Assembly (NCBI GenBank): GCA_039812985.1
Contig: JBDHUL010000001.1
Coordinates: 1 to 56,744, forward strand
Source of the DNA: Candidatus Saccharimonadaceae bacterium
GTDB lineage: Bacteria; Patescibacteriota; Saccharimonadia; Saccharimonadales; Saccharimonadaceae
Reading direction: 5' to 3'
DNA: 56,744 bases
This document shows positions 14,990 to 15,620 of the stretch, in pieces; position 1 is the stretch's first letter, and every line of letters starts with the position of its first letter. The notes under the pieces were generated by a model, which was not told the origin of the DNA, did no database searches, and worked only from the letters and a program-made list of their open reading frames with translations. Position numbers and translations under genes: made by a program.

Positions 14990-15620
14990 AACATTCCATC
15001 TACCATATCTATTTTTCGTCGAACGAGGCACGCGTCTGACTATTAGTAAACGTATTGACGGTAAGACACCTCTAGTAACAGCCGGCTTCGAAAATAACGG
15101 TGTTGCGGGGTATATCAGTAATCCTGAGCAAAAAGTATTTCCTGCAAATACATTGACGATTGATATGTTCGGCAATGTATTTTATAGAAATTATAAATTT
15201 TGTGCCGATGATAACATCCTAGTCCTCACATTCAAAGATACACTAAATCGTGGACGCGCATTATTTTTAGCTGCTACCATATCCGCTGGAGTGCGTGGAA
15301 AATTTTCTTACGGCAAGCAATACCGACAAGGAAGTTTTGAGACTACGTCCATAGACTTGCCCATTGATAAAAATGGCAAAATTGATTTTCCATATATGGA
15401 AAAACGCATTCGAGAACTCGAAGCGGAACGCATTCGAGAACTCGAAGCGGAACGCATTCGAGAACTCGAAGCGTATCTAAAAGTTACCGGCCTAAGCGAT
15501 ACGATACTTAGCCGCGAAGAACAAGCCGTTCTAGACGTATTCCGCGCGGAGCAAGCAAGCAAGCAAGCAAGCAAGCAAGCAAGCAAGGTCAGTTTAGCAG
15601 ATTCACAACATTTGCAATAG
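14979..15620 (+). CDS. RM specificity (HsdS/BcgI-B-like) subunit, N-terminal half: TRD1 plus coiled-coil, terminated after a (GCAA)9 frameshift tract
   Basis: 213 aa. GAGGAG RBS 9 nt upstream. TRD-like core (PLVTAGFENNGVAGYISN...TLTIDMFGNVFYRNYKF) followed by helical RIRELEAE repeats and ..LEAYLKVTGL. The frame ends 31 nt after the tetranucleotide tract. Confidence 0.8.
   Translation: MMYKTFHLPYLFFVERGTRLTISKRIDGKTPLVTAGFENNGVAGYISNPEQKVFPANTLTIDMFGNVFYRNYKFCADDNILVLTFKDTLNRGRALFLAATISAGVRGKFSYGKQYRQGSFETTSIDLPIDKNGKIDFPYMEKRIRELEAERIRELEAERIRELEAYLKVTGLSDTILSREEQAVLDVFRAEQASKQASKQASKVSLADSQHLQ
15405..15473 (+). repeat. 24-bp tandem repeat x2.9 (CGCATTCGAGAACTCGAAGCGGAA), in frame, encoding (RIRELEAE)n
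   Basis: Read directly. Units lie at 15405-15428, 15429-15452 and 15453-15473 and are identical over their shared length. Confidence 0.97.
15550..15587 (+). repeat. Tetranucleotide microsatellite (GCAA)9 inside the specificity gene
   Basis: Read directly. Nine perfect GCAA units occupy 15551-15586, flanked by partial units. Confidence 0.97.

Follow-up and report, generated by a model that had tools for sequence, protein, structure and literature searches.

In-frame tandem repeats in the specificity (S) subunits of restriction-modification (R-M) systems are known from several contexts. The Type IC enzymes EcoR124I and EcoR124II carry two versus three copies of the repeat TAEL in the HsdS helix that follows the first target recognition domain (TRD1), and the copy number sets the spacer of the target, N6 with two repeats and N7 with three, according to the passages on these enzymes in two later papers (cited in PMC3077401, PMC9159934). 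The S subunits of Helicobacter pylori Type I group 2 systems also contain a strain-variable central repeat (12-bp unit, 2-6 copies; Furuta 2011, 2014), and alleles with three and four repeats have 7 and 8 bp, respectively, between the methylated bases (PMC3983042). Closest to the locus described here are the H. pylori RM+S systems HP1471/HP1472 and JHP1364/JHP1365, whose S genes contain between the two TRDs 0-4 tandem copies of the 24-bp sequence CAGTGTCGGCTCGCCGAACTTGAG (Furuta 2011, PMC3077401). These systems were called BcgI-like Type IIB, and their S genes are phase-variable via a poly-G tract (Krebes 2014, PMC3936762). Hpy99XXII (TCA N6 TRG) is the sole motif reported for the H. pylori BcgI-like systems (PMC3936762), and motifs could not be assigned to the H. 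pylori IIG S alleles by Furuta 2014 (PMC3983042). A literature search for BcgI-like systems elsewhere with this 24-bp repeat returned nothing beyond Furuta 2011; a paper on Bibersteinia mentions a BcgI-like system without giving repeat data.

An enzyme of known structure is BsaXI (8w0p; PMC11997821, PMC9159934), a Type IIB system of (RM)2S composition in which the S subunit is arranged as TRD1-CR1-extra helix-TRD2-CR2. Its cryo-EM structure contains antiparallel CR1 and CR2 helices with an extra helix after CR1, and the RM subunits make no contact with each other (PMC11997821). Another class of repeats, the frameshifting simple sequence repeats (SSRs), has been surveyed in Type I hsdS genes, where they are always located between the TRDs and include a GCAA[7-29] case in hsdS of H. 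parasuis (PMC7383803). In NgoAV and the SSR-containing hsdS genes the inter-TRD repeat toggles between full-length and truncated S (PMC7383803). A literature search on phase variation of R-M systems in Saccharibacteria found no paper.

The window analyzed here, a 56,744-nt stretch of the genome of a Candidatus Saccharimonadaceae bacterium (contig JBDHUL010000001.1), contains a two-gene R-M locus, all features of which lie on the plus strand. The RM (A) subunit of 672 aa is encoded by positions 12971..14989, as evidenced by matches to Pfam N6_Mtase (2e-31) and to the PADLOC model REase_MTase_IIG (PDLC03616), the latter covering residues 8-667 of 672 with an E-value of 5e-216. Its N-terminal region is nuclease-like (PD...EDK) and is accompanied by a gamma-class N6-adenine methyltransferase with the NPPF motif and a C-terminal helix; residues P61-D62...E75-D76-K77, picked out by eye, are the candidate nuclease motif. 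The 3' end of the RM gene overlaps the start of the S gene by 11 nt. As now in frame, the S gene (14979..15620 in the list of open reading frames, confirmed by translation) codes for TRD1, the CR1 helix, the extra helix and a GCAA tract, and terminates at a stop codon after 213 aa; its product is similar to Pfam Methylase_S (7.9e-15) and PADLOC Specificity_II (5.5e-23). TRD2 and the CR2 helix, the latter formed by the final ~35 aa (about 16010..16114), are encoded in frame 3 at 15584..16117, with the stop at 16117, and are now uncoupled from TRD1. This half was delimited by translation and by its own matches to Methylase_S (9.4e-13) and Specificity_II (1.6e-18).

The S gene was initially compared with HsdS-type proteins, and the implied assignment to Type I has to be corrected, the gene upstream of S being no HsdM. 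Nuclease and N6-adenine methyltransferase reside in a single polypeptide, a separate S gene lies directly downstream, and no HsdR-type translocase is encoded among the genes flanking RM and S, which code for DUF2200, rhodanese, mannitol dehydrogenase, ABC transporter, L25 and UvrA proteins. An A-like ORF (~680-700 aa) is located immediately upstream of S in 68 of the 80 related loci compared in the genome collection, and one member of the S family is labelled "BgcI subunit beta" by its source. The match to the fusion RM model, the Type II matches of S, the lack of HsdR and the pairing of A and S genes in relatives thus indicate that the system, as judged from its gene content, is a BcgI-like Type IIB system consisting of two genes, a nuclease-methylase fusion (RM/A) and S.

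RM and S are fused in three further related loci of the 80 compared. Single RM-S ORFs of >1000 aa in Lentisphaeria and Campylobacter are located at L030:1994-5062, L062:1829-5023 and L040:2-1822, and in both Campylobacter loci (L040 and L062) the single ORF keeps the CR1 repeat and the poly-G tract. Other S subunits of 530-550 aa (P0074, P0112 and L046:3944-5593) are fused to a LexA-like Peptidase_S24 domain. No exact match of the window S product was found by look-up, NCBIfam contains no model for S, and a profile of the family searched against PDB reached 1ydx alone. PDB matches of the 213-aa product obtained by sequence search were rejected as spurious coiled-coil similarity (E above 0.3). 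An exact-pattern scan of JGI metagenomes with the left flank of the array described below gave no match.

The array occupies positions 15403..15473 and was recognized by Tandem Repeats Finder as a 24-bp period in 3.0 (2.96) copies with 100% matches, no indels and a score of 142. It is the sole repeat of the window with a period of at least 12 bp, about three copies and perfect identity. In the register 15405..15473 the unit is CGCATTCGAGAACTCGAAGCGGAA, present as two full copies followed by 21 of its 24 bases. Translation in frame 1 of the ORF 14979..15620 gives RIRELEAE RIRELEAE RIRELEA for residues R143-A165 of S, that is, (RIRELEAE)x3. A perfect self-match of 47 bases at an offset of 24 is no chance product in 57 kb, and the in-frame, perfect 24-bp repeat of 2.9 copies reported in the initial annotation is therefore confirmed.

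The position of the repeat was examined with the AlphaFold2 model (pLDDT 94.8) of the homolog P0001, which has an identical CR1 with RIRELEAE x3. In this model CR1 forms a continuous helix of 34 residues (140-173) containing all three units, followed by a loop, an extra helix (182-197), TRD2 and a CR2 helix of 35 residues (337-371). With an alignment offset of three residues, the CR1 helix housing the repeat corresponds to S residues about 137-170 of the window (15387..15488), and the extra helix between CR1 and TRD2 to residues about 179-194 (15513..15560). According to the model, the repeat is thus within the first inter-domain helix, CR1, which agrees with its earlier placement in the helix after TRD1; likewise, the estimate of two helical turns per 8-residue unit holds, the value being about 2.2 turns. 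The modelled fold matches HsdS crystal structures and the S subunit of BsaXI (a distant similarity, Foldseek E-value 2e-8 at 12% identity), the topology of the latter being as modelled here. In the model of the one-unit homolog P0029, CR1 comprises 17 residues and CR2 again 35, and the distal end of CR2 is predicted with reduced confidence; pTM is 0.64 for this protein versus 0.78 for the three-unit P0001.

To place the array in its family, 1804 relatives were retrieved with the S protein fused in silico, the best of them showing 52-53% identity. In their alignment a unit of the form xELExxxx is present once, twice or three times in the helix following TRD1, while the length of CR2 is constant. 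The distance between the conserved M140 and the invariant Y166 equals 10+8n in all 52 scorable loci, of which 3 have one unit, 30 have two, 17 have three, and single loci have five (L056) and six (L073). Among 113 proteins, one, two, three and four units were counted in 3, 48, 61 and 1 cases, respectively. The module is distributed from Cyanobacteria to Firmicutes to the Candidate Phyla Radiation (CPR), and the window array is homologous to the module found throughout the S family. The HP1471/JHP1364-type repeat of H. pylori, also of 24 bp, belongs to this module; its unit CAGTGTCGGCTCGCCGAACTTGAG translates to AELEQCRL, the same unit as in the family member P0034.

Several pairs of alleles are one unit apart. 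P0004 and P0017 have no other differences in 368 residues, P0056 and P0110 have one mismatch, and P0024 and P0029 have nine. In Enterobacterales (Yersinia/Klebsiella) S alleles of 364 aa (57 contigs) and 356 aa (46 contigs) also differ by one unit. Taken at the level of the aligned sequences, such pairs show that units are gained and lost singly, giving otherwise identical alleles within a range of one to six units. We infer that this gain and loss comes about by slippage, or by unequal exchange involving identical units. The copy number, proposed earlier to be variable, varies from one to six across the family and between two and three in the organism's own species.

The peptides encoded by the units are specific to lineages (AELEAERI, SELQAASV, AELEARRT, EELERERV, AELEEERV and others) and uniform within a gene. 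Of the 19 genes that have at least three units, 15 show no DNA difference between their full units, and units with the same peptide from different species have a mean DNA identity of 86.6%. Two-unit genes often contain diverged copies, with 0-6 mismatches in 15 nt. GAA is found in every unit of the window and GAG in every unit of its sister lineage L120, so that each array appears to be homogenised for its own variant; a third array, L001, is mixed. Judging from these codon variants, the arrays are homogenised within each lineage, which supports the earlier view that the perfect identity of the units results from recent turnover. Two units thus look like the stable ground state, and larger arrays seem to be young or continually homogenised. 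Both the family-wide quantisation and the homogenisation at the DNA level appear to be undescribed in the papers that could be searched.

Variation was also found among the closest relatives of the window. L001, an independent Logan contig from another run, is 99.94% identical to the window over 8 kb and has three units that can be distinguished by SNPs, a GAA-to-GAG change in unit 2 and a GCG-to-GCA change where the array ends. Two of the five differences between L001 and the window fall inside the 71-bp array (15403..15473 versus L001:7863-7933), with an expectation of 0.04 at a uniform rate; this clustering suggests that the array has undergone gene conversion or re-expansion. The sister lineage L120, with an A protein 92% identical to that of the window, has three units. 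L120:3298-3700 compared with window positions 14979..15395 represents a TRD1 swap with the breakpoint at or before CR1, and the pair L123/L121 is the mirror case, with TRD2 swapped.

The contig L110 (SRR31850042), 99.6% identical to the window over 5 kb, contains exactly two perfect units; aligned with the window, it shows a clean gap of 24 nt. Every 31-mer of a two-unit allele also occurs in a three-unit allele, and seven k-mers tell the two apart. The two-unit contig therefore implies that these seven k-mers are absent from SRR31850042, a run that otherwise yielded contigs of 15 and 40 kb for this organism, and the two-unit allele is probably real. Nine further contigs end at window position 15432, where, as verified computationally, a k=31 de Bruijn graph necessarily breaks given three or more perfect units. 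A two-unit allele, a three-unit allele with two SNPs and perfect alleles of at least three units thus seem to coexist in the species of the window. The opposite state considered in the initial annotation, a fixed copy number with diverging units, is seen in part in L001 and is overturned by the two-unit array of L110.

A second repeat, (GCAA)x9, is located at 15551..15586 in the linker before TRD2, as evidenced by the sequence, Tandem Repeats Finder and translation. The 24-bp unit preserves the reading frame, whereas the unit of the adjacent (GCAA)9 is not divisible by three, which is the mark of frameshifting contingency repeats. With nine GCAA units TRD2 is out of frame, while a full-length S of about 380 aa would result from 7, 10 or 13 units. 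The GCAA tract is where all Logan contigs of this organism terminate. The linker that joins the extra helix to TRD2 carries frameshift-prone repeats in other members of the family as well: G9 in a Lactobacillus MAG and two Campylobacter loci (L013:4550-4558, L040:1293-1301 and L062:4509-4517), (GA)6, (GA)12 and (GA)15, all in frame, in the close relatives L121-L123, and, in L120 from about position 3990, 14 or more GCAA units together with a scaffold gap. The poly-G S cluster includes many truncated products of 213-215 aa. The combination of a helix repeat and a GCAA tract in one gene, initially regarded as unusual, is thus recurrent, in the family as poly-G, (GA)n and (GCAA)n and in published form in H. 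pylori (PMC3936762, PMC3077401). The linker repeats of different lineages look like the convergent evolution of one switch, as far as their sequences and positions indicate.

The window array is a further example of the module already described in H. pylori. With HP1471/HP1472 and JHP1364/JHP1365 it shares the family, the inter-TRD position, a 24-bp unit encoding xELExxxx, a copy number that varies between strains and a frameshifting simple repeat in S (PMC3077401, PMC3936762), while it differs in the unit RIRELEAE, in (GCAA)n instead of poly-G and in its host, a member of Saccharimonadales (CPR). As in EcoR124I/II, an in-frame tandem repeat lies within the helix linking TRD1 to TRD2, and otherwise identical alleles differ in copy number, both across the family and in the window's own species. 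Unlike the present locus, EcoR124I/II are Type I systems with separate HsdM and HsdR and a repeat unit of 4 residues (12 bp) versus 8 (24 bp), and the function of the repeat, proven there, is here deduced by comparison. The H. pylori Type I group 2 systems are likewise of Type I and have a 4-residue unit. BsaXI is of the same type, composition and S architecture as the present system, but its CR1 of 42 residues has no tandem repeat and its RM subunit contains knob and paddle domains that are absent here. The published hsdS survey (PMC7383803) was restricted to Type I and excluded repeats with a unit that is a multiple of three, hence it contains no arrays of this kind; its SSRs correspond to the GCAA tract.

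The reading that we prefer, with a probability of roughly 0.55, is that the number of units tunes the spacer of the Type IIB target. It is suggested by the analogy with EcoR124I/II and the H. pylori Type I group 2 systems, in which 4 residues give 1 bp. Each unit would lengthen the helix forming the only covalent link between TRD1 and TRD2 by 8 residues, about 12 Å and about 80 degrees, and, with CR2 being constant, TRD2 would be displaced relative to TRD1. The lack of mutual contact between the RM subunits of BsaXI means that S alone positions them; where S has this role, the spacer between the half-sites should shift with the length of CR1. The result would be a stepwise change of the non-specific spacer in a bipartite target, affecting methylation and cleavage alike. 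Scaled from EcoR124I/II, each unit is predicted to change the spacer by about 2 bp, possibly by 3 bp, and helix rise alone would permit up to 3.5 bp. The (GCAA)n tract would act as a second, independent switch: in one state TRD2 is coupled to TRD1, in the other a half-subunit of TRD1 and CR1 is left. The half-subunit could dimerise on a palindromic site, with the spacing again set by the length of CR1. The TRD1-CR1 half of BsaXI S alone is active on the palindromic site AC N5 GT (PMC9159934), and by this analogy the 213-aa product of the window may be functional as a dimer.

Several points count against a role of the array in spacer tuning. The 8-residue step is large, and with one to six units the spacers would have to span a range of at least 10 bp, wider than the N4-N7 of characterised Type IIB enzymes. 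The length of CR2 does not follow that of CR1, and the 8-residue period fits no heptad or canonical coiled-coil register. In the window, TRD2 is out of frame and full-length S is not made at present. Finally, truncations of 8 to 32 residues from the C terminus of CR1 in the half-S of BsaXI left the N5 spacer unchanged and lowered the activity (PMC9159934). These truncations also speak against tuning, but they are C-terminal changes in a half-S rather than internal changes of a full-length S.

The same truncations are in line with a neutral, length-tolerant polymorphism, in which the array slips, CR1 tolerates additional turns, and the half-site spacing is set by RM-DNA contacts, CR2 and the extra helix, leaving the specificity unchanged. 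The variation of CR1 at constant CR2 length points in this direction, as does the variable length of the downstream linker ((GA)6, (GA)12 and (GA)15, each of them in frame), a sign that the region may be permissive. The diverged copies of the two-unit genes, indicative of a stable ground state with young expansions, fit it as well. Neutrality is harder to reconcile with the common occurrence of both two- and three-unit alleles, across phyla and within species, with a strictly quantised step in a module retained from Cyanobacteria to Firmicutes to CPR, and with the fact that the equivalent repeat of Type I systems does alter the spacer. We consider this explanation rather unlikely.

It is improbable that the number of units instead modulates activity, affecting the assembly of A2S or the position of the cut and not the sequence read, so that off-optimal lengths weaken or relax the enzyme. 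The CR1 deletion variants of BsaXI, which kept their specificity with partial activity (PMC9159934), agree with such an effect. In models of BcgI-type enzymes the C-terminal helices of the RM subunits pack on CR1/CR2 in a four-helix bundle, so helix length should matter for assembly, and the AlphaFold2 confidence is highest at equal lengths of CR1 and CR2, i.e., with three units. However, alleles with one to three units all persist intact beside intact A genes.

In a third explanation, the main role of the conserved CR1 DNA is to provide a site of crossover when TRDs are exchanged, changes in unit number being a by-product. Between L120 and the window, identity is 38% in TRD1, 93% in CR1 and the extra helix and 82% in TRD2-CR2, while L123 and L121 have TRD1 and CR1 in common and different TRD2, and repeat-mediated movement of TRDs has been proposed for the H. 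pylori homolog (Furuta 2011, PMC3077401). A crossover, however, needs conserved sequence and not a tandem duplication, and the strict one-unit differences between otherwise identical alleles are left unexplained, which makes this reading very unlikely as the main function of the array; it is compatible with spacer tuning and not exclusive of it.

Although three units might in principle be collapsed into two by a k=31 assembly at low coverage, the two-unit 31-mers being a subset of the three-unit ones, a mis-assembled perfect repeat in the window or in L110 is hardly credible, since the three units of L001 are resolved by SNPs, three units were also recovered for L120 with a different assembler, the run behind the two-unit contig also yielded 15.6-kb and 40-kb contigs of the same organism, and one-unit differences recur in many NCBI and ENA records.

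If spacer tuning by the array is correct and the number of units sets the spacer, one slippage event would re-target both methylation and cleavage, and, together with the GCAA switch, an episymbiont with a very small genome could cycle through several specificities. In the family, quantised 8-residue steps, expanded arrays with DNA-identical units and three kinds of frameshifting repeats at one linker form a common pattern. Tentatively, and with some doubt, this pattern might represent a conserved specificity generator with two dials in BcgI-like Type IIB systems across phyla, including CPR episymbionts. In such a generator CR1 would be a ruler of one to six units with steps of 2-3 bp, and an independently evolved linker repeat (poly-G, (GA)n or (GCAA)n) would toggle between an asymmetric TRD1+TRD2 site and a palindromic TRD1-TRD1 site, the spacing of the palindrome being set by two rulers. 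The natural allele pairs at hand, the Neisseria alleles L045 and L069 among them, provide material for a Type IIB test of a rule so far shown only for Type I.

The UvrA protein of the window is 80-82% identical to those of named Saccharimonadales (TM7/CPR) MAGs. A host among Neisseriaceae or Pasteurellaceae, which the tetranucleotide repeat had suggested, was rejected, since DUS and USS copies are absent and UvrA points to Saccharimonadales. More than 40 public sequencing runs contain the organism, among them SRR31850042, SRR30274993 and runs of the SRR273087xx, SRR348311xx-348312xx and SRR9691015-17 series. Its k=31 assemblies are all interrupted at the GCAA tract, and most of them at the 24-bp array too, so the S gene is never intact there. 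More generally, S genes of this family are likely to be often mis-assembled or split at both repeats, which calls for caution in their annotation. The runs also differ at other places of the genome. In SRR32936298 (L089:6658-9872) an insertion beside uvrA, at window positions about 22755..23230, encodes a transposase of the IS1595 family, a Replic_Relax protein and an MFS transporter; this insertion is missing from the window and from the other runs. The product of a gene with a PaaX_M domain (window region about 24641..25309) comprises 180 aa or 197 aa depending on the run (L088:7446-7988 versus L099:7446-8039), which indicates a strain-level difference at the end of the gene. Other tandem duplications in the window are a 13-bp sequence present twice just downstream of S (16250..16275) and a 21-bp sequence present twice with 95% identity within a minus-strand gene (40346..40386).
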